Source of the DNA: a virus
Taxonomy: Duplodnaviria > Heunggongvirae > Uroviricota > Caudoviricetes
IMG/VR virus record: IMGVR_UViG_2660238600_000001
Coordinates: 1 to 9,649 of that record
DNA length: 9,649 bases
Direction: 5' to 3' (one strand)
The stretch's first letter is position 1, and every line of letters begins with the position of its first letter. The position numbers and the translations under genes are program-made. Shown here piece by piece: positions 420 through 8,675 of this stretch. The notes under the pieces were generated by a model that was not told the origin of the DNA, made no database searches, and saw only the letters and a list, made by a program, of their open reading frames with translations.

Positions 420-1502
420 TTAGAACTGGTAAACCATACCTACAGCAACGATATCATCGGTAGCAACGCCAGATGCTTTCGTGAAATCGCTCTTATCAAT
501 CAGGTTGATTTTGTAGTCAACAAAAGTGGACATATTTTTGTTGAAGTAATAGGTTGCACCTACATCAACATATTCAACCAGGTCCTGATCACCCCAAACA
601 CCCAAGTCTTTTCCTTTAGAATGCAGGTAAGCAACGGATGGACGCAGGCCGAAGTCGAACTGATATTGTGCAACAGCTTCGAAGTTTTGTGCTTTGTTGG
701 CAATATGGTTATTACCAAAAACAGTCATGTTCTGGGTTTCAGAATAGGTGGTGGCCAGATAGATGTTGTTCGCATCATATTTCAGACCAGCTGCCCATAC
801 TTCAGCATTTTGACCAGAAGCATTCAGACCGTTGTTACCGAGGATAACCTGATTATTAGTGCGATCAGATTTAGCATAGGTTGCACCCACGCCGAATCCT
901 TCATACTCATAAGTAGTTGAGAAACCGAAACCATCGCCATTAGCTTCAGTTACTTCATTTCGGTCATTTTTGCCCTGATACTGAGCTGCAAAGTTCAGGC
1001 CATCAACCAGACCAAAGAAGTCGTTGTTACGATAAGTTGCAACACCTGTGGTGCGACCAGTCATGAATACATCTGTTTGGGTCCAGGTATCGCCACCGAA
1101 TTCTGGCAGAACGTCGGTCCATGCACCAATATCGTATGCTACACCGTAGTTACGGCCATAATCGATGGAGCCGTAGTCACCGAATTTCAGGCCAGCGAAG
1201 GCAAGACGGGTTTTATCTTTGGAGGAACCTTGAGATTCAGCGCGGTTGCCTTTGAATTCATATTCCCACTGACCGAAACCAGTCAGTTGATCGTTGATTT
1301 GGGTTTCACCTTTGAAGCCAAGACGGGCATAAGTAGTATCACCATCATCTGCATCATTAGAGGAGAAGTAGTGCTTAGCATTAACTTTCCCGTACAGATC
1401 CAGCTTGTTACTGTCTTTATTATAAATTTCAGCTGCCTGAGCAGACATCGCCATCAGTACTGATGCAGCTACAGCAGAAATTGCCACTGTTAATTTTTTC
1501 AT
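420..1502 (-). CDS. nmpC: Outer-membrane general porin, NmpC/OmpD/Lc subfamily of the OmpC/OmpF/PhoE family (prophage-borne)
   Basis: 360-aa minus-strand ORF from ATG at 1502-1500 to TAA at 422-420. Signal peptide [23 protein letters not shown], then [16 protein letters not shown], internal PEFGGD loop motif, and C-terminal ...VAVGMVYQF ending in Phe. The track's longer ORF adds 17 upstream codons with no signal-peptide logic. Confidence 0.9.
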
Positions 1503-1900
1503 CGTGAGACCTTTTTTTGAACATTTATTAAAAAATGATGCCCTGCGCGACAAATATTCATCTAATCAATGTGATTAATTCAAGATGTAAGTTTTAGATT
1601 CTTATTTAAATTGTGATCTAGATCTCTATTTTTATCTGAACTTTTTCTAATGCATGCTGTGCATGACTATTCTCTGAAAGAAAATAAATTTGGTAGCTAA
1701 ATTATATTAAAGGTTGTTATTTATAAGTGTTCTATAATTCATCTCTTTAATTTAAATTCACTGAAAATAACGTCGGAAATTATTTAATGATTATTTGTTT
1801 ATTTTTCCTTATGTGATTGTGGTGGTGTTTTGAACACTCGATATCATTCTCACAAATATTGTTTAGAGGTTTACGTACGTAAAAAATTGGTTATGCTGTT
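1503..1900 (-). promoter_or_regulatory. AT-rich upstream regulatory region of the porin gene (promoter not pinned down)
   Basis: About 400 bp of markedly AT-rich DNA with A/T tracts immediately 5' of the porin start. No unambiguous -35/-10 pair could be assigned by eye. Confidence 0.3.
1870..1897 (+). promoter_or_regulatory. Candidate sigma70 promoter; possible late-promoter (pR'-like) equivalent
   Basis: TTTACG (1870-1875), 16-bp spacer, TATGCT (1892-1897), about 30 bp upstream of a strong intrinsic terminator. Functional assignment is inference. Confidence 0.25.
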
Positions 1901-2420: not shown

Positions 2421-3473
2421 ATGAAAAATACTGTGAAAATAAACAGTACTGATTTAATCAACGCTGATTGCCTGCATTTTATTCAGTCCCTGCCTGATGA
2501 TTCCATTGACCTGATTGTTACCGATCCGCCGTACTTCAAGGTGAAACCCAACGGTTGGGACAATCAGTGGAAAGGGGACGAAGATTACCTGAAGTGGCTG
2601 GACCACTGTCTGGCTCAGTTCTGGCGGGTGCTGAAACCTGCCGGAAGCCTTTACCTGTTCTGTGGACATCGCCTCGCATCTGATATCGAGATCATGATGC
2701 GTGAACGTTTCAACGTTCTTAACCATATTATCTGGGCGAAGCCGTCCGGACGATGGAACGGGTGTAATAAAGAAAGTCTGCGCGCATATTTTCCCGCAAC
2801 AGAACGCGTTCTGTTTGCTGAACATTACCAGGGACCATATCGCGGCAAAAGTGACGGCTATGCGGCAAAAGAAAGTCAACTCAAACAGCACATAATGGCA
2901 CCGCTGATTTCGTATTTCAGGGATGCTCGTGCCGAACTGGGTATAACGGCAAAACAGATTGCCGAAGCCACTGGTAAGAAAAATATGGTTTCCCACTGGT
3001 TTGGTGCCAGTCAGTGGCAGTTGCCGAATGAGGCTGACTACCGGAAGTTGCAGGCACTGTTTTCCCGTATAGCGGCAGAGAAATTTCAGGAACAACAACT
3101 GGAACAACCACACCACCAGCTGGTGGCATCTTATGATTCACTGAATCGCAAATATTCTGAATTGCTGGATGAGTTTAAAACTCTCCGGCGCTATTTCTCC
3201 GTATCAGTTTCCGTGCCTTATACCGATGTCTGGACGCATAAACCCGTTCAGTTCTACCCGGGTAAACATCCGTGTGAGAAGCCTGCGGATATGCTCCGGC
3301 AAATAATCAGTGCCAGTAGTCGACAAGGCGATCTGGTTGCTGATTTCTTTATGGGATCCGGTTCCACAATAAAAGCGGCAATGGCGCTGGGGCGTCGGGC
3401 GTTAGGTGTTGAACTTGAGTCAGAGCGGTTTAATCAGACGGTGAAAGAGGTAAGTGAACTGGTGGGGAAATAA
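2421..3473 (+). CDS. Orphan DNA methyltransferase, beta-class amino-methyltransferase (N6-adenine or N4-cytosine)
   Basis: 350-aa ORF. Catalytic motif IV DPPY near the N-terminus (LIVTDPPYF) and AdoMet motif I near the C-terminus (DLVADFFMGSGST), i.e. beta-class order. No restriction endonuclease gene is adjacent. Confidence 0.9.
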   Translation: MKNTVKINSTDLINADCLHFIQSLPDDSIDLIVTDPPYFKVKPNGWDNQWKGDEDYLKWLDHCLAQFWRVLKPAGSLYLFCGHRLASDIEIMMRERFNVLNHIIWAKPSGRWNGCNKESLRAYFPATERVLFAEHYQGPYRGKSDGYAAKESQLKQHIMAPLISYFRDARAELGITAKQIAEATGKKNMVSHWFGASQWQLPNEADYRKLQALFSRIAAEKFQEQQLEQPHHQLVASYDSLNRKYSELLDEFKTLRRYFSVSVSVPYTDVWTHKPVQFYPGKHPCEKPADMLRQIISASSRQGDLVADFFMGSGSTIKAAMALGRRALGVELESERFNQTVKEVSELVGK

Positions 3474-3480
3474 TTCTGGT

Positions 3481-3506
3481 GGCCACGTTGCGTGGCCTTT
3501 TTATTT
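3481..3506 (+). terminator. Rho-independent terminator after the methyltransferase gene
   Basis: GGCCACG (3481-3487) / CGTGGCC (3491-3497) stem with 3-nt loop, followed by TTTTTATTT. Confidence 0.55.
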
Positions 3507-3549
3507 CCAACACAGCACCCGCAAATATCGCGAGGTGAGAGATGACGAA

Positions 3550-3885
3550 ATGCCTCATAACCCAAATACCTGGCCGGACTGGCTGGAGTTGTTTCAGAGC
3601 TGGTGGCGTGGAGATACGCCGCTGGGCGCAGTGATTATGTCGATTGTTATGGCTGGTTTGCGCATCGCCTATTTTGGCGGTGGTGGTGGCTGGAAGCGAA
3701 AAACGCTCGAGATTTTGCTATGTGGCGCTCTGACGTTGACCTTTGCATCCGCGCTTGAGTATGTCGGATGGCCTAAATCGCTTTCTGTTGCCATTGGTGG
3801 TGGGGTGGGGCTGATCGGTGTCGATGCTATTCGTGGGGCTGCAATGAGAGTAATCGGTAACAAGTTTGGTAGCTCGAAGGAGTAA
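3550..3885 (+). CDS. Holin, lambda S-like class I (three predicted transmembrane segments)
   Basis: ATG at 3550 preceded by GAGGTGA; three hydrophobic stretches (LGAVIMSIVMAGLRIAYF, TLEILLCGALTLTFASALEYV, LSVAIGGGVGLIGVDAI) and a charged C-terminus; directly upstream of R. The track's 3454 start would put the terminator hairpin inside the coding region. Confidence 0.7.
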   Translation: MPHNPNTWPDWLELFQSWWRGDTPLGAVIMSIVMAGLRIAYFGGGGGWKRKTLEILLCGALTLTFASALEYVGWPKSLSVAIGGGVGLIGVDAIRGAAMRVIGNKFGSSKE

Positions 3886-3888
3886 TTT

Positions 3889-4365
3889 ATGCAGGTACTA
3901 AATTCCCAGCGTAAAGCTTTCCTGGATATGGTTGCATGGTCAGAAGGAACGGATAACGGGCGACAACCGACACGTAACCACGGTTATGATGTTATTGTCG
4001 GTGGTGAACTGTTTACTGATTACTCCGATCACCCTCGCAAACTTGTCACGCTAAACCCAAAACTCAAATCAACAGCAGCCGGACGTTACCAGCTTCTTTC
4101 CCGTTGGTGGGATGCCTATCGTAAGCAGCTTGGCCTGAAAGACTTCTCTCCGAAAAGCCAGGACGCTGTGGCATTGCAACAGATTAAAGAGCGTGGCGCT
4201 TTACCGATGATTGACCGCGGTGATATTCGTCAGGCAATCGACCGTTGCAGCAATATCTGGGCTTCATTGCCGGGCGCTGGTTATGGTCAGTTCGAGCATA
4301 AGGCTGACAGTCTGATTTCAAAATTCAAAGAAGCAGGCGGAACGGTCAGAGAGATTGAGGCATGA
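3889..4365 (+). CDS. R: Endolysin, lambda R-type lytic transglycosylase
   Basis: 158 aa, nearly collinear with lambda R as recalled ([22 protein letters not shown]...[24 protein letters not shown]...). The catalytic Glu of the WSEGT motif is present. Confidence 0.92.
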
Positions 4366-4820
4366 GCAGAGTCACCGCGATTATCTCCGCTCTGGTTATC
4401 TGCATCATCGTCTGCCTGTTATGGGCTGTTAATCATTACCGTGATAACGCAATCGCCTACAAAGAGCAGCGCGATAACAAGGCCAGTGAACTGGAGAAGG
4501 CGAACGCCACCATCGCTGACATGCGGAAGCGTCAACGTGATGTAGCAGAACTCGACGCAAGATACACAAAGGAGCTTGCTGATGCTAACGCGACTATCGA
4601 AAGTCTCCGTGCTGATGTTTCTGCTGGGCGTAAGCGCCTGCAAGTCGCCGCCACCTGTGCAAAGTCAACGACCGGAGCCAGCGGCATGGGCGATGGAGAA
4701 AGCCCAGGACTTACAGCAGATGCTGAACTCAATTATTACCGTCTCCGAAGTGGAATCGACAAGATAACCGCGCAGGTTAACTACCTGCAGGAATACATCA
4801 GGACGCAATGCCTGAAATAA
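4362..4820 (+). CDS. Rz: Rz inner-membrane spanin (i-spanin)
   Basis: ATGA start/stop overlap with R; N-terminal transmembrane segment [23 protein letters not shown] followed by a charged coiled-coil region; closely lambda Rz-like. Confidence 0.9.
4582..4767 (+). CDS. Rz1: Rz1 outer-membrane lipoprotein spanin (o-spanin), embedded in the +1 frame of Rz
   Basis: ATG at 4582 with AGGAG 8 nt upstream; lipoprotein signal with lipobox (LLGVSAC), then a proline-rich segment ([15 protein letters not shown]). The track's TTG start at 4576 is less likely. Confidence 0.8.
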
Positions 4821-4877: not shown

Positions 4878-5025
4878 CATCTGAATTTCACAGCGCATCT
4901 CACGCGCATATTACATCACCCGAGCCTTTCAGAAAGTTGAGCCTGAGAACTGCCGTATATGGTGGCGACCATCTCGGGGCGGCTTTTCTGTGAGACAGGC
5001 TCACTTTCTAAAAGGTAAAGACGCT

Positions 5026-5514
5026 ATGAACCAATTAGAAGAAAAGCTTCAAAGAATGATTTCCTTATACAAGGAAGATAACTGCCAAAAAGTTCCTGAA
5101 AACATCGCAGAGTTAATGGAATTGGCAAGTGAATTTTCTGGCATGCTTAAGTCGTCAGGTGTTCGGTCAGCGTTCTTTGTTGAAATGCTGATGCACGGCG
5201 GACTTATGGCAACAATGAGACGTGTAATGGAAGACCAGAGAAAAGAACCTCCTCAGGTATACGTTTTGTCATCGAAGAAAACTGGGCTAACCAAAATTGG
5301 GTATTCATCCAACATTCCACAACGCATCAAATCGCTTGGCAACTCTGGACCAGACTGCTTGAAGCTTGAGTGCCTGATCCCTGGTGGAAGAGAAACTGAA
5401 AACATGCTTCATCGCAAATTTGCCGCAAAGAGAAAGCACGGTGAATGGTTCGCCCTGTCCAAGGATGACATTGAGGGATTGAAATCTGTAGCGATTACTT
5501 CTGATGGCTATTAA
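5026..5514 (+). CDS. T5orf172 (GIY-YIG superfamily-like) domain protein with an unassigned helical N-terminal region; moron at the lambda bor position
   Basis: ATG at 5026 with AAAGG upstream, 162 aa. C-terminal half carries the T5orf172-type pattern: VYVLSS...GLTKIGYS...RIKSL...LKLECLIPGGRETENMLHRKFAAKRKHGEWFAL. The N-terminal 90 aa matches nothing I recognise. Confidence 0.7.
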   Translation: MNQLEEKLQRMISLYKEDNCQKVPENIAELMELASEFSGMLKSSGVRSAFFVEMLMHGGLMATMRRVMEDQRKEPPQVYVLSSKKTGLTKIGYSSNIPQRIKSLGNSGPDCLKLECLIPGGRETENMLHRKFAAKRKHGEWFALSKDDIEGLKSVAITSDGY

Positions 5515-5943: not shown

Positions 5944-6192
5944 GCTTATACCCTACACGGGATAACTTAACTGATATCCCTTTTAAAGGATAAAGGTATT
6001 CAAGCCTGACACATCATGCGCTGTATCGTCGCCGTATTCCCGTATTAACAGAGACCGTAGCCCGACGGGGAACTCCTTCTGCGCGAGTGTGTGGGAATAA
6101 TCAAAAACGATGCACACCGGGGTTACCGGGTACACATATTTCATCATGCCAGCGAGTCCGGTTCTGGCACGGAAGAAACCGGACGTTATGAT

Positions 6193-6603
6193 TTAGTGCG
6201 GAAATATTTGTGTAGTGTTCTGAATGTTCTCAGTAAAGAGTAATGAATTATCAAAGGTATAGTAATACCTTTTGTTTTCGTGGATATTTGTAATCCATCT
6301 GAAAACCCCTGCAGTAGCAAGATTTTTCCTGTATTCGTAAAATGATAACTCTCCTGATTTGAATCCTTTTAAGGTGGCTTCTATAAGGCATTTATTTTTT
6401 GAAAATCTTACATTTACAACCTTACCCTGTCCTTTTATTAAAACCGTATTATCGTTTTCAAGAACAAGATGAATATTCTCTGTGGCTAAATAGTAAATGT
6501 AATGTGAGACATTGTGACGTTTTAGTTCAGAATAAAACCAGTGATAGTTTAAATTATTTCGCACTTTATCGAATATTTGTTTAAAAATGGCAACCTGAGC
6601 CAT
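6193..6603 (-). CDS. AT-rich hypothetical protein, 136 aa (YbcV / DUF1398-like by recollection)
   Basis: Start at ATG 6603 (MAQVAIFKQ...) preferred over 6618 because GGAAGG lies 8 nt upstream on the minus strand. Markedly lower GC than flanking genes; Tyr/Asn/Lys-rich. Family assignment is from memory of the equivalent DLP12/lambda right-arm ORF. Confidence 0.6.
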
Positions 6604-6659
6604 TGTAGTACCTTCCATGTGATATGAGGGGTGTAGTCTGCACGATTATCTAAATTGCT

Positions 6660-6893
6660 TCAATCTGGTCTGATCTGTTTTCTGAGCAATTCAGTAATGT
6701 CACTCTTTTCTTTGTTTGCTTCAGGAGAAACTCTTTTTTCTGAGCACAGTCTCCGGCGGCAGGCTTCAATGACCCAGGCTGAGAAATTCCCGGACCCTTT
6801 TTGATCAAGAGCGATGTTAATTTGTTCAATCATTTGGTTAGGAAAGCGGATGTTGCGGGTTGTTGTTCTGCGGGTTCTGTTCTTCGTTGACAT
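6660..6893 (-). CDS. Ribbon-helix-helix (Arc/MetJ/CopG-like) putative DNA-binding protein, 77 aa
   Basis: Basic N-terminus then RNIRFPNQMIEQINIALDQKGSGNFSAWVIEACRRRL, i.e. a beta-strand / helix / helix layout like Arc. ATG at 6893; weak RBS. Confidence 0.6.
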   Translation of the reverse strand: MSTKNRTRRTTTRNIRFPNQMIEQINIALDQKGSGNFSAWVIEACRRRLCSEKRVSPEANKEKSDITELLRKQIRPD

Positions 6894-7062
6894 GAGGTTG
6901 TCCCGTATTCAGTGTCGCTGATTTGTATTGTCTGAAGTTGTTTTTACGTTAAGTTGATGCAGATCAATTAATATGATACCTGCGTCATAATTGATTATTT
7001 GACGTGGTTTGATGGCGTAGATGCACGTTGTGACATGCAGATGATAATTATTATCATTTTGC

Positions 7063-7262
7063 GGGTCCTTTCCGGCGATCCGACAGGTTACGGGGCGGCG
7101 ACCTCGCGGGTTTTCGCTATTTATGAAAATTTTCCGGTTTAAGGCATTTCCGTTCTTCTTCGTCGTAACTTAATGTTTTTATTTAAAATATCCCCTGAAA
7201 AGAAAGGAAACGACAGGTGCTGAAAACGAGCTTTTGGGCCTCTGTCGTTTCCTTTCTCTGTT
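7063..7262 (+). other. Lambda-type cos site: cosQ (about 7063-7069), cosN with 12-nt cohesive-end sequence GGGCGGCGACCT (7093-7104), cosB with R3/I1/R2/R1 (about 7145-7258)
   Basis: ...GGGTCCTTTCCGGCGATCCGACAGGTTACG | GGGCGGCGACCTCGCGGGTTTTCGCTATTTATGAAAATTTTCCGG... matches the recalled junction of lambda right and left ends. Repeated R-site cores at 7145-7162, 7202-7217 (inverted) and 7242-7258, with an A/T-rich bend site between. Confidence 0.85.
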
Positions 7263-7281
7263 TTTGGCCGTGGAATGAACA

Positions 7282-7827
7282 ATGGAAGTCAACAAAAAGC
7301 AGCTGGCTGACATTTTCGGTGCGAGTATCCGTACCATTCAGAACTGGCAGGAACAGGGAATGCCAGTTCTGCGAGGCGGTGGCAAGGGTAATGAGGTGCT
7401 TTATGACTCTGCCGCCGTTATAAGATGGTATGCCGAAAGGGATGCTGAAATTGAGAACGAAAAGCTGCGCCGGGAAGTTGAAGAACTGCGGCAGGCCAGC
7501 GAGACAGATCTCCAGCCAGGGACTATTGAGTACGAACGCCATCGACTTACGCGTGCGCAGGCCGACGCACAGGAGCTGAAAAATGCCAGAGACTCCGCTG
7601 AAGTGGTGGAAACCGCATTCTGTACTTTCGTGCTGTCGCGGATCGCAGGTGAAATTGCCAGTATTCTCGACGGGATCCCCCTGTCGGTGCAGCGGCGTTT
7701 TCCGGAACTGGAAAACCGACATGTTGATTTCCTGAAACGGGATATCATCAAAGCCATGAACAAAGCAGCCGCGCTGGATGAACTGATACCGGGGTTGCTG
7801 AGTGAATATATCGAACAGTCAGGTTAA
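7282..7827 (+). CDS. nu1: Terminase small subunit Nu1
   Basis: 181 aa, near-identical to lambda Nu1 as recalled (MEVNKKQLADIFGASIRTIQNWQEQGMPVLRGGGKGNEVLYDSAAV...); N-terminal winged HTH; overlaps A by 26 nt as in lambda. Confidence 0.95.
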   Translation: MEVNKKQLADIFGASIRTIQNWQEQGMPVLRGGGKGNEVLYDSAAVIRWYAERDAEIENEKLRREVEELRQASETDLQPGTIEYERHRLTRAQADAQELKNARDSAEVVETAFCTFVLSRIAGEIASILDGIPLSVQRRFPELENRHVDFLKRDIIKAMNKAAALDELIPGLLSEYIEQSG

Positions 7828-8056
7828 CAGGCTGCGGCATTTTGTCCGCGCCGGGCTTCGCTCACTGTTCAGGCCGGAGCCACAGACCGCCGTTGAATGG
7901 GCGGATGCTAATTACTATCTCCCGAAAGAATCCGCATACCAGGAAGGGCGCTGGGAAACACTGCCCTTTCAGCGGGCCATCATGAATGCGATGGGCAGCG
8001 ACTACATCCGTGAGGTGAATGTGGTGAAGTCTGCCCGTGTCGGTTATCTCCGGTGA
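7802..8056 (+). pseudogene. A: Terminase large subunit A, N-terminal remnant (about 82 codons, then a 2-codon out-of-context tail)
   Basis: MNISNSQVNRLRHFVRAGLRSLFRPEPQTAVEWADANYYLPKESAYQEGRWETLPFQRAIMNAMGSDYIREVNVVKSARVGY matches the lambda A N-terminus; after VGY the frame reads LR-stop. The ATPase and nuclease domains are absent. Confidence 0.85.
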
Positions 8057-8075
8057 GCCGGAGGAGTATTTCCGG

Positions 8076-8675
8076 ATGTCGCCGGAGGACTGGCTGCGGG
8101 CAGAAATGCAGGGTGAGATTGTGGCGCTGGTCCACAGCCACCCCGGTGGTCTGCCCTGGCTGAGTGAGGCCGACCGGCGGCTGCAGGTGCAGAGTGATTT
8201 GCCGTGGTGGCTGGTCTGCCGGGGGACGATTCATAAGTTCCGCTGTGTGCCGCATCTCACCGGGCGGCGCTTTGAGCACGGTGTGACGGACTGTTACACA
8301 CTGTTCCGGGATGCTTATCATCTGGCGGGGATTGAGATGCCGGACTTTCATCGTGAGGATGACTGGTGGCGTAACGGCCAGAATCTCTATCTGGATAATC
8401 TGGAGGCGACGGGGCTGTATCAGGTGCCGTTGTCAGCGGCACAGCCGGGCGATGTGCTGCTGTGCTGTTTTGGTTCATCAGTGCCGAATCACGCCGCAAT
8501 TTACTGCGGCGACGGCGAGCTGCTGCACCATATTCCTGAACAACTGAGCAAACGAGAGAGGTACACCGACAAATGGCAGCGACGCACACACTCCCTCTGG
8601 CGTCACCGGGCATGGCGCGCATCTGCCTTTACGGGGATTTACAACGATTTGGTCGCCGCATCGACCTTCGTGTGA
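8076..8675 (+). CDS. K: Tail tip assembly protein K (JAMM/MPN plus NlpC/P60 domains), apparently full length
   Basis: ATG at 8076 with GGAGGAG 9 nt upstream; 199 aa; JAMM motif HSHPGGLPWLSEAD and NlpC/P60 Cys region GVTDCYTLFRDAYHLAG. Length and the 103-nt overlap with I match my recollection of lambda K. Confidence 0.8.
   Translation: MSPEDWLRAEMQGEIVALVHSHPGGLPWLSEADRRLQVQSDLPWWLVCRGTIHKFRCVPHLTGRRFEHGVTDCYTLFRDAYHLAGIEMPDFHREDDWWRNGQNLYLDNLEATGLYQVPLSAAQPGDVLLCCFGSSVPNHAAIYCGDGELLHHIPEQLSKRERYTDKWQRRTHSLWRHRAWRASAFTGIYNDLVAASTFV

Follow-up and report, generated by a model that had tools for sequence, protein, structure and literature searches.

Two leftward genes beside cos in a lambdoid Escherichia coli prophage: the ynfO–ydfO pair and its mosaic surroundings

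The stretch of DNA analysed here (9,649 nucleotides, called the window throughout) contains the right end of a lambdoid E. coli prophage. Between its rightward lysis and packaging genes lie two small genes that both point leftward, and they raise a simple question: are they a functional unit, or neighbours by descent of the surrounding DNA? An initial annotation had read them as an Arc-like RHH protein followed by a very AT-rich 136-aa ORF, forming a compact unit of the kind seen in toxin–antitoxin or exclusion modules. Our answer is that they are probably two independent accessory genes, ynfO and ydfO, placed together by mosaic recombination in a defective Qin/DLP12-like lambdoid prophage. 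The features of the window that bear on this question are as follows.

420–1553, minus strand: porin gene
2421–3473: DNA methyltransferase
3454–4820: lysis cassette
4990–5514: GIY-YIG/T5orf172 ORF
6193–6603, minus strand: DUF1398 gene of the ydfO/ybcV type, 136 aa (Pfam PF07166, PDB 2HH8)
6604–6659, minus strand: spacer of 56 nt between the DUF3950 and DUF1398 genes
6660–6893, minus strand: DUF3950 gene, ynfO orthologue, 77 aa (Pfam PF13132, NCBIfam)
6663–6679, minus strand: PdhR-box-like 17-mer AACAGATCAGACCAGAT, overlapping the DUF3950 gene in its final codons
6676–6731: mosaic junction, a 55-bp segment (from BLAST segments and alignment)
6894–7092: region from the DUF3950 start to cosN, containing cosQ
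7093–7104, plus strand: cosN cohesive-end sequence GGGCGGCGACCT, single exact match
7282–7827, plus strand: Nu1, terminase small subunit of the nohA/nohD type (Pfam Phage_Nu1, 2.4e-101)
right of Nu1: terminase A remnant joined to tail genes

The cos region and the two genes

The lambda cohesive-end sequence has one exact match in the window where chance would give none, and a cos site is annotated at the matching position of phage DE3. The two leftward ORFs, their 56-nt gap and their place beside cos are confirmed as initially described, with cosN 199 nt from the DUF3950 start codon. The DUF3950 gene and Nu1 are divergent, and their start-to-start spacing of 388 nt is also found in Qin, DLP12, REL606, 03_3469 and EC17CM12. 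The stretch between the DUF3950 start and cosN holds inverted repeats (6963–6970/6988–6995 and 7041–7057); it is nearly identical among lambda-type prophages and is replaced by unrelated sequence in phages with an HNH-type terminase. A leftward promoter for the DUF3950 gene must lie within 6894–7092, and a simple scan of the minus strand of this interval returned no sigma-70 consensus. A search of the whole window against Rfam returned no RNA family.

The gene nearer to cos encodes a 77-aa protein that matches the 30-residue Pfam profile DUF3950 (PF13132; 4.9e-21, 74.8 bits against a cut-off of 25) and the NCBIfam model YlcI_YnfO_N (NF041551; 35.7 bits against a cut-off of 30). Since it passes both profile cut-offs, it is assigned by sequence to the YlcI/YnfO family. 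K-12 YnfO is 96% identical to it along all 77 residues, and YlcI is 95% identical across residues 1–55. An AF2 model built on 16 divergent relatives (pLDDT 70) has an extended stretch at residues 14–18 (NIRFP), a helix at 19–32, a short turn and a second helix at 37–54, with a further helix at 59–73 in the YnfO-type tail. The family-invariant residues I15, R16, F37, W40, V41 and C45 all fall within the modelled core. The best fold matches of this model are mostly RHH proteins, all of them weak, and they include RHH antitoxins with a C-terminal helix (KacA, TacA, ParD, FitA and MazE). The label of an Arc-like RHH protein appears to hold qualitatively, with fold matches that are weak throughout. 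On this model, residues 13–54 or so are predicted to be an RHH DNA-binding domain and residues 55–77 a variable C-terminal tail; the conserved N-terminal ~50 residues of YnfO most likely form a dimeric RHH DNA-binding domain, which would make the protein a transcription regulator.

The two parts of the gene also look differently constrained. Across the first 52 codons, comparison with an Stx-phage copy gives a dN of 0.08 and a dS of 0.74. The window and Qin tails show only two nucleotide differences, both non-synonymous, and the variable tail looks less constrained at the sequence level.

The second gene is listed as an ORF at 6193–6618; translation from an ATG at 6603, which follows GGAAGG, yields the protein of 136 aa. 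At 31.4% GC it is as AT-rich as first noted, against 44.0% for the DUF3950 gene and 47.4% for the window. Its product matches Pfam DUF1398 (PF07166; 3e-43, 147.1 bits against a cut-off of 22) along profile positions 1–119 of 119. The ORF is thus intact, and the earlier possibility of a decayed fragment falls away. The NMR structure of YdfO (PDB 2HH8) is matched along residues 1–135 (2.9e-67), identity is 76% to YdfO and 78% to YbcV, and the window allele is identical to those of phages Kati, ev099 and PhiR49_1. Compared with ydfO, ybcV and the lambda copy, the gene has dN/dS values of 0.21–0.37 (dS 0.69 against ydfO); judged by these codon comparisons, both the DUF1398 and the DUF3950 gene are under purifying selection. 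An AF2 model of the DUF1398 protein, built on 17 close homologues, reached a pLDDT of 47 and was left out of the fold search, as hits to so poor a model would carry no meaning.

Database labels would make the DUF1398 protein a virion component: PHROG 413 is called 'head protein' and lambdap78 'putative envelope protein'. Such a role is barely credible. The gene runs against the late operon, CRISPRi mapping of lambda scored lambdap78 as non-essential (PMC10695390), and DUF1398 is absent from most phages that carry a DUF3950 gene. There is also a chromosomal paralogue, ycgX, beside bluR. The protein itself has no hydrophobic N-terminus, and 2HH8 was solved as a soluble protein. We would instead expect a soluble, cytoplasmic protein.

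As for when it is made, exposure to an ionic liquid is reported to induce ydfO strongly, and overexpressed YdfO to raise resistance to oxidative stress (PMC4077768). From the K-12 literature, then, the DUF1398 gene is probably silenced in normal growth and induced by stress. A study of motB and H-NS in which ybcV and ybcW rose more than 1000-fold (PMC7827196) was dropped as evidence for silencing by H-NS, because its strain carries lambda DE3 and induced late transcripts cover near-identical genes.

The joint with the lambda and DLP12 forms

The compact layout of the window has a direct counterpart in K-12. In the Qin prophage, nohA–ynfO–ydfO (b1548, b4533, b1549) has the same order, orientation and gene lengths (234 and 411 bp for ynfO and ydfO), and the spacer between the pair is 57 nt, against 56 nt in the window. 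The DUF1398 allele has diverged between the two, and genes further left differ: the GIY-YIG/T5orf172 ORF lies there in the window, as opposed to gnsB and cold-shock genes in Qin.

DLP12 and lambda carry a longer form. DLP12 reads ybcV–ybcW–ylcI–nohD, with a DUF1398 protein 78% identical and a DUF3950 N-terminal domain 95% identical to those of the window; lambda reads lambdap78–lambdap79–(unannotated ORF, complement 48109..48303)–cos–Nu1. Both have in common with the window the cos–Nu1 module (96% nucleotide identity) and the block upstream of DUF1398. Both differ from it in a 64-aa DUF3950 protein with another tail, and in ~614 bp that include the rightward ybcW/lambdap79 where the window has 55 bp. 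The initial annotation had likened the pair to these right-arm ORFs (YbcV-like DUF1398, DUF3950) and had noted the missing rightward gene; Pfam matches and alignment bear out the likeness, and ybcW/lambdap79 is indeed absent.

As a side observation, the lambda reference sequence NC_001416 has an unannotated DUF3950 ORF 199 nt from its right end.

Where the two forms part can be placed closely. In BLAST against lambda DE3, the window matches at 82% along 6017–6676 and at 96% along 6731–7400, which sets a mosaic breakpoint within the 3'-terminal part of the DUF3950 gene, with the higher identity to its right. In a four-way alignment of the window, Qin, lambda and DLP12, the first ~54 DUF3950 codons are common to all. 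Beyond them, lambda and DLP12 continue into the 64-aa YlcI type and then the convergent ybcW, whereas the window and Qin run into 55 unrelated bp that yield the 77-aa YnfO type. This 55-bp segment, which has no counterpart in lambda or DLP12, encodes residues ~55–72 of the YnfO-type tail and is bounded by a 15-nt direct repeat (6674–6688 and 6732–6746). The compact-allele junction thus cuts into the 3'-terminal part of the RHH gene and gives the protein another C-terminal tail, for a length of 77 rather than 64 aa. In K-12 RNA-seq data, ylcI is transcribed and overlaps ybcW convergently (PMC12288877).

All four sequences reconverge at TCAGACCAGATTGAA, and from there their homology extends past the ribosome-binding site into the DUF1398 gene. 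The block from this point to the DUF1398 start, with the GGAAGG ribosome-binding site inside the 6604–6659 spacer, is therefore common to the compact and the ybcW-containing forms. The point of reconvergence is the 17-mer reported as a PdhR site: gSELEX gave AAcaGGTcagACCAgaT for ynfO>ydfO and AtcTGGTctgACCtcTT for ybcV/ybcW, and ybcV mRNA was reported to be ten-fold lower in a pdhR mutant (PMC7660256). The box in the window differs from that in Qin by one G-to-A change in the left half-site, and it forms the left edge of the sequence held in common with the ybcV upstream region of lambda and DLP12. That this upstream block is conserved and includes a published PdhR site suggests, at the level of sequence, that the DUF1398 gene has its own regulation.

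Linkage of the two genes and the functional-pair question

How often the two genes occur together was asked of 5426 complete E. coli genomes with a 141-nt query that covers the compact junction only, at an identity of at least 95%. The junction is present in 2177 of them (~40%), at 2302 places. The compact form also occurs in phages Kati, Chlobot, PhiR49_1 and ev099, of which Kati, ev099 and PhiR49_1 are viable phages. RefSeq labels the two products 'YlcI/YnfO family protein' and 'DUF1398 domain-containing protein'. The compact unit described in the initial annotation is real, then, but it is neither rare nor a product of decay; what had been missed is that it is the annotated ynfO–ydfO arrangement of Qin.

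A common arrangement is not an obligate one, and the DUF3950 gene stands by terminase genes with no DUF1398 gene in REL606, 03_3469, EC17CM12 and 2015C-3101. Its downstream neighbours vary: iss/bor in REL606, a Rha gene in 03_3469, a ybcW-like gene in EC17CM12 and PerC in an O157 strain. In the Stx2a phage WGPS8, DUF3950 lies antisense between lysis genes and an unrelated HNH-TerS-TerL packaging module, again with no DUF1398 gene, and the sequence becomes homologous to the window precisely at the DUF3950 start codon. Because homology starts only there, no shared operator upstream of the gene is visible across phage types.

Counts point the same way. In a phage collection, the DUF3950 N-terminal domain occurs in 155 records and DUF1398 in 43, so that at least 112 of the 155 (at least 72%) have DUF3950 and lack DUF1398. 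In complete E. coli genomes, the 5' region of the DUF3950 gene was found at 8375 places, the compact junction at 2302 and the ybcV–ybcW junction at 1523, so that at most about 46% of DUF3950 copies have DUF1398 in either known configuration; these copy counts are approximate and depend on the sensitivity of megablast. In the other direction, DUF1398 homologues occur in 5376 of the 5426 genomes, and in many the sole match is ycgX, a solitary DUF1398 gene beside bluR with no DUF3950 gene nearby (see also PMC3509220). Scans of viral contigs with each window protein retrieved only near-identical E. coli prophage loci and are uninformative on distant linkage; word-indexed searches with both proteins gave, among the best 120 matches, only E. 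coli and lambda-control sequences. Taken at the level of gene neighbourhoods, the DUF3950 gene goes with the packaging module and not with DUF1398.

This pattern bears directly on the suspicion of a type II toxin–antitoxin, abortive-infection or exclusion module, in which DUF1398 would be the toxin and the RHH tail would neutralize it. The resemblance is genuine as far as it goes. As in ParD/ParE, TacA/TacT and CopG-family modules, a small RHH-like protein with a C-terminal helix is followed by a second small gene; the RHH gene comes first, both genes are small, the second is foreign in composition, and many of the weak fold matches of the RHH model are antitoxins with a C-terminal helix. Moreover, the 77-aa tail variant always occurs with a directly adjoining DUF1398 gene. 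This last correlation, however, is a trivial one, since it is the junction DNA that encodes the tail, and the two differences between the window and Qin tails, non-synonymous as both are, also speak against the reading.

Further evidence goes the same way. Unlike in such modules, the genes are separated by a 56-nt gap rather than overlapping, co-occurrence is non-obligate in both directions, and solitary DUF1398 paralogues exist, with ycgX standing alone in many E. coli genomes. Neither a known toxin family nor a defence HMM is matched: against PADLOC-DB v2, neither protein hit a defence family at E <= 0.01. No toxicity is reported either; YdfO was produced for the NMR structure 2HH8, and cells that overexpress it reportedly become more stress-resistant (PMC4077768). 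Together with the breakpoint between the genes and DUF1398's own 5' region, these results tell against the module proposed initially. Since the two genes are not an obligate pair, the main testable expectation for such a module, we regard a toxin–antitoxin or exclusion function as very unlikely.

The main rival is a milder one, a single operon in which an autoregulating RHH repressor sets the level of the DUF1398 protein, with regulator and cargo but no toxin. RHH proteins of the Arc/MetJ/CopG superfamily commonly autoregulate. The genes are on the same strand, separated by the 56-nt spacer, and a promoter and terminator scan predicted no terminator-like site between them (6604–6659). They also form one block at 95% identity or more in 2177 genomes, and the layout in Qin is identical. 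On the minus strand, the same scan for consensus sites gave no promoter ahead of the DUF3950 gene or within the spacer, and neither promoter nor terminator at the edges of the cassette; the total of sites that it reported was no higher than in shuffles. Against an operon, the DUF1398 gene of lambda and DLP12 is parted from the RHH gene by a convergent gene and still keeps the upstream block with the PdhR site. Most RHH copies, in addition, have other downstream genes or none, and lambda-type and HNH-type phages have no conserved sequence in common ahead of the RHH start, so that no shared operator can be seen. On balance we consider the operon unlikely.

Two accessory genes brought together by mosaic recombination thus remain the reading that we favour. 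On this account, ynfO and ydfO would occupy a variable slot between the lysis genes and cos. YnfO would be a small RHH regulator contributed by the packaging-module side of the mosaic. The DUF1398 cassette would be a horizontally acquired, AT-rich piece that brings along ~75 nt of upstream region with a PdhR-type site, and the compact form and the ybcW-containing form of lambda and DLP12 would be alternative mosaic alleles. Each gene would have a separate promoter. Both run against the late operon, a hint that they are expressed from the prophage, in the lysogen, rather than by late transcription.

In these respects the pair resembles morons such as lambda bor and lom. Like them, it is antisense to, or independent of, the late operon, polymorphic for presence and absence, deviant in composition (for DUF1398) and non-essential for lytic growth. 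Independent orientation, a GC content of 31% against 47% and variable occupancy of the slot are all found here. Bor, unlike the pair, has an established host phenotype, serum resistance.

The wider DUF3950 family and what the pair means

The constant place of the DUF3950 gene next to packaging genes invites a different question, that is, whether the family has a function there. The family is a very small one: an exhaustive search of 1.84 billion representatives found only 112 clusters of DUF3950 proteins. In a scan with one genome per species, ~40 genuine divergent loci were found in other Enterobacterales, at 35–57% identity. In the 39 loci that were mapped, a tyrosine integrase lies downstream in 23 and an AlpA gene in 16, and a DUF927/Toprim primase is found in the divergent operon upstream in 14. 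By gene content this arrangement corresponds to the layout of PICI/P4-like satellites, and a recent survey lists YlcI/YnfO proteins in capsid-forming PICIs (PMC13612085). Other divergent members lie by IpgD/SopB in Salmonella arizonae and by metabolic genes in Tatumella. Within 4 kb of the genuine divergent Enterobacterales loci, neither DUF1398 nor Nu1 was found; the only two tblastn matches (L226 and L235) were rejected as lambda-contaminant contigs.

Two family members are fusions. In P0304 and P0330, the DUF3950 domain is joined to a segment that matches the first ~50 positions of the Terminase_2 profile. The P0330 ORF was confirmed on a metagenome contig (L255), in a satellite inserted next to the HNH-TerS genes of a helper prophage with a DUF3950 gene of its own. 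When viral contigs were searched for the fusions, P0330 had no match and P0304 had N-terminal matches only.

These observations suggest a link between the DUF3950 family and the packaging region. They could be taken further, to a dedicated regulator at the boundary between lysis and packaging genes that might influence how late transcription reads through into the terminase genes, or take part in cross-talk with satellites. In its favour, the gene lies antisense immediately upstream both of lambda Nu1/A and of HNH-TerS-TerL, packaging modules unrelated to each other. The conserved position may, however, simply reflect where mosaic joints are tolerated, and we think a dedicated packaging-boundary regulator rather improbable. 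Kinship with Rpp, the PICI packaging-redirection protein, was considered and dropped: a section heading in the account by Murialdo and Feiss speaks of a 'wing' in Rpp (PMC9026076), which would point to a winged helix and away from an RHH fold.

Altogether, the pair is already known. It is annotated, it is very common in lambdoid prophages of E. coli, and its compact layout is that of K-12 Qin. The suspicion of a toxin–antitoxin system can be set aside, and the 'head protein' and 'envelope protein' labels of DUF1398 are unsupported. Both families are members of the y-ome, and for one of them, DUF3950, its constant place by the packaging genes and its presence in satellites offer a modest lead.

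DUF3950 genes beside packaging modules

In Stx-converting phages with an HNH-TerS-TerL module, the DUF3950 gene lies antisense just upstream of the packaging genes, its position unchanged, with a gap of only 41 nt between the gene and the start codon of HNH. When the HNH-type copy is compared with the lambda-type copy, homology begins exactly at the ATG. A satellite found in a metagenome contig adjoins the HNH-TerS genes of a Stx-type prophage, and both elements carry the domain. The loci are as follows.

L252, 2094-2728: DUF3950 locus of Stx2a phage WGPS8
L170, 2911-3135: same arrangement at a second locus
L255 (metagenome contig OGON01004471.1), 52-4750: region of interest with satellite and prophage
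L255, 973-1335: satellite 120-aa protein, a DUF3950 domain joined to a segment resembling the terminase small subunit N-terminus
L255, 1394-1600: satellite AlpA-like gene
L255, 1613-2848: satellite integrase
L255, 4550-4750: the prophage's own DUF3950 gene, divergent from HNH

The lambda ORF and lambda DNA in other assemblies

The lambda reference records hold an intact 64-aa DUF3950 ORF of the YlcI type, 199 nt from the right end, which is without annotation in NC_001416, J02459 and DE3.

NC_001416, complement(48109..48303), equivalent to 2742-2936 of L001: lambda DUF3950 ORF

Our genome-contig scan also returned lambda right-end DNA, on contigs of ~3.5 kb or 48.5 kb, in ~30 assemblies of unrelated bacteria (L177-L208, L226, L235), Kitasatospora, Cohnella, Pedobacter and Shewanella among them. 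These contigs are most likely sequencing-control contamination, which also swells the match lists of protein searches.

Further genes, truncated terminase gene and compact junction of the window

The window carries these further features.

2421-3473 (+): 350-aa DNA methyltransferase
4990-5514 (+): GIY-YIG-like protein with MUG113/T5orf172 domains
5983-6147 (-): 54-aa ORF
6674-6688 and 6732-6746: 15-nt direct repeat, TCTGTTTTCTGAGCA / TCTTTTTTCTGAGCA
7802-8056: terminase large-subunit gene remnant, first ~84 codons kept
8037-8675: K-like tail gene (NlpC/P60 plus JAB)

Flanked by the porin gene on one side and the lysis cassette on the other, the methyltransferase gene has a type II MTase as its best PADLOC model (2.2e-152); no restriction-endonuclease partner was seen among the window's listed ORFs. 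The slot after Rz, filled in other prophages by bor, KilA-N or Rha genes, is here taken by the GIY-YIG-like gene, and its product weakly matches the PADLOC candidate system PDC-S57 (8e-6).

The K-like gene adjoins the terminase remnant and is followed by an I-like gene. The prophage has lost its head genes and most of its tail genes and is therefore defective. A contiguous match to the window beyond ~8051 was seen in none of the complete E. coli genomes.

On the strand of the DUF1398 gene and starting 45 nt downstream of it, the 54-aa ORF is called hypothetical in phages ev099 and Kati and receives no PGAP annotation. It matched nothing in Pfam, PHROG, NCBIfam or PADLOC, and lambda has no counterpart at the homologous place. 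At the compact junction, the 15-nt direct repeat brackets the 55-bp segment that stands in for ybcW, and may be the mark of how the compact allele arose.
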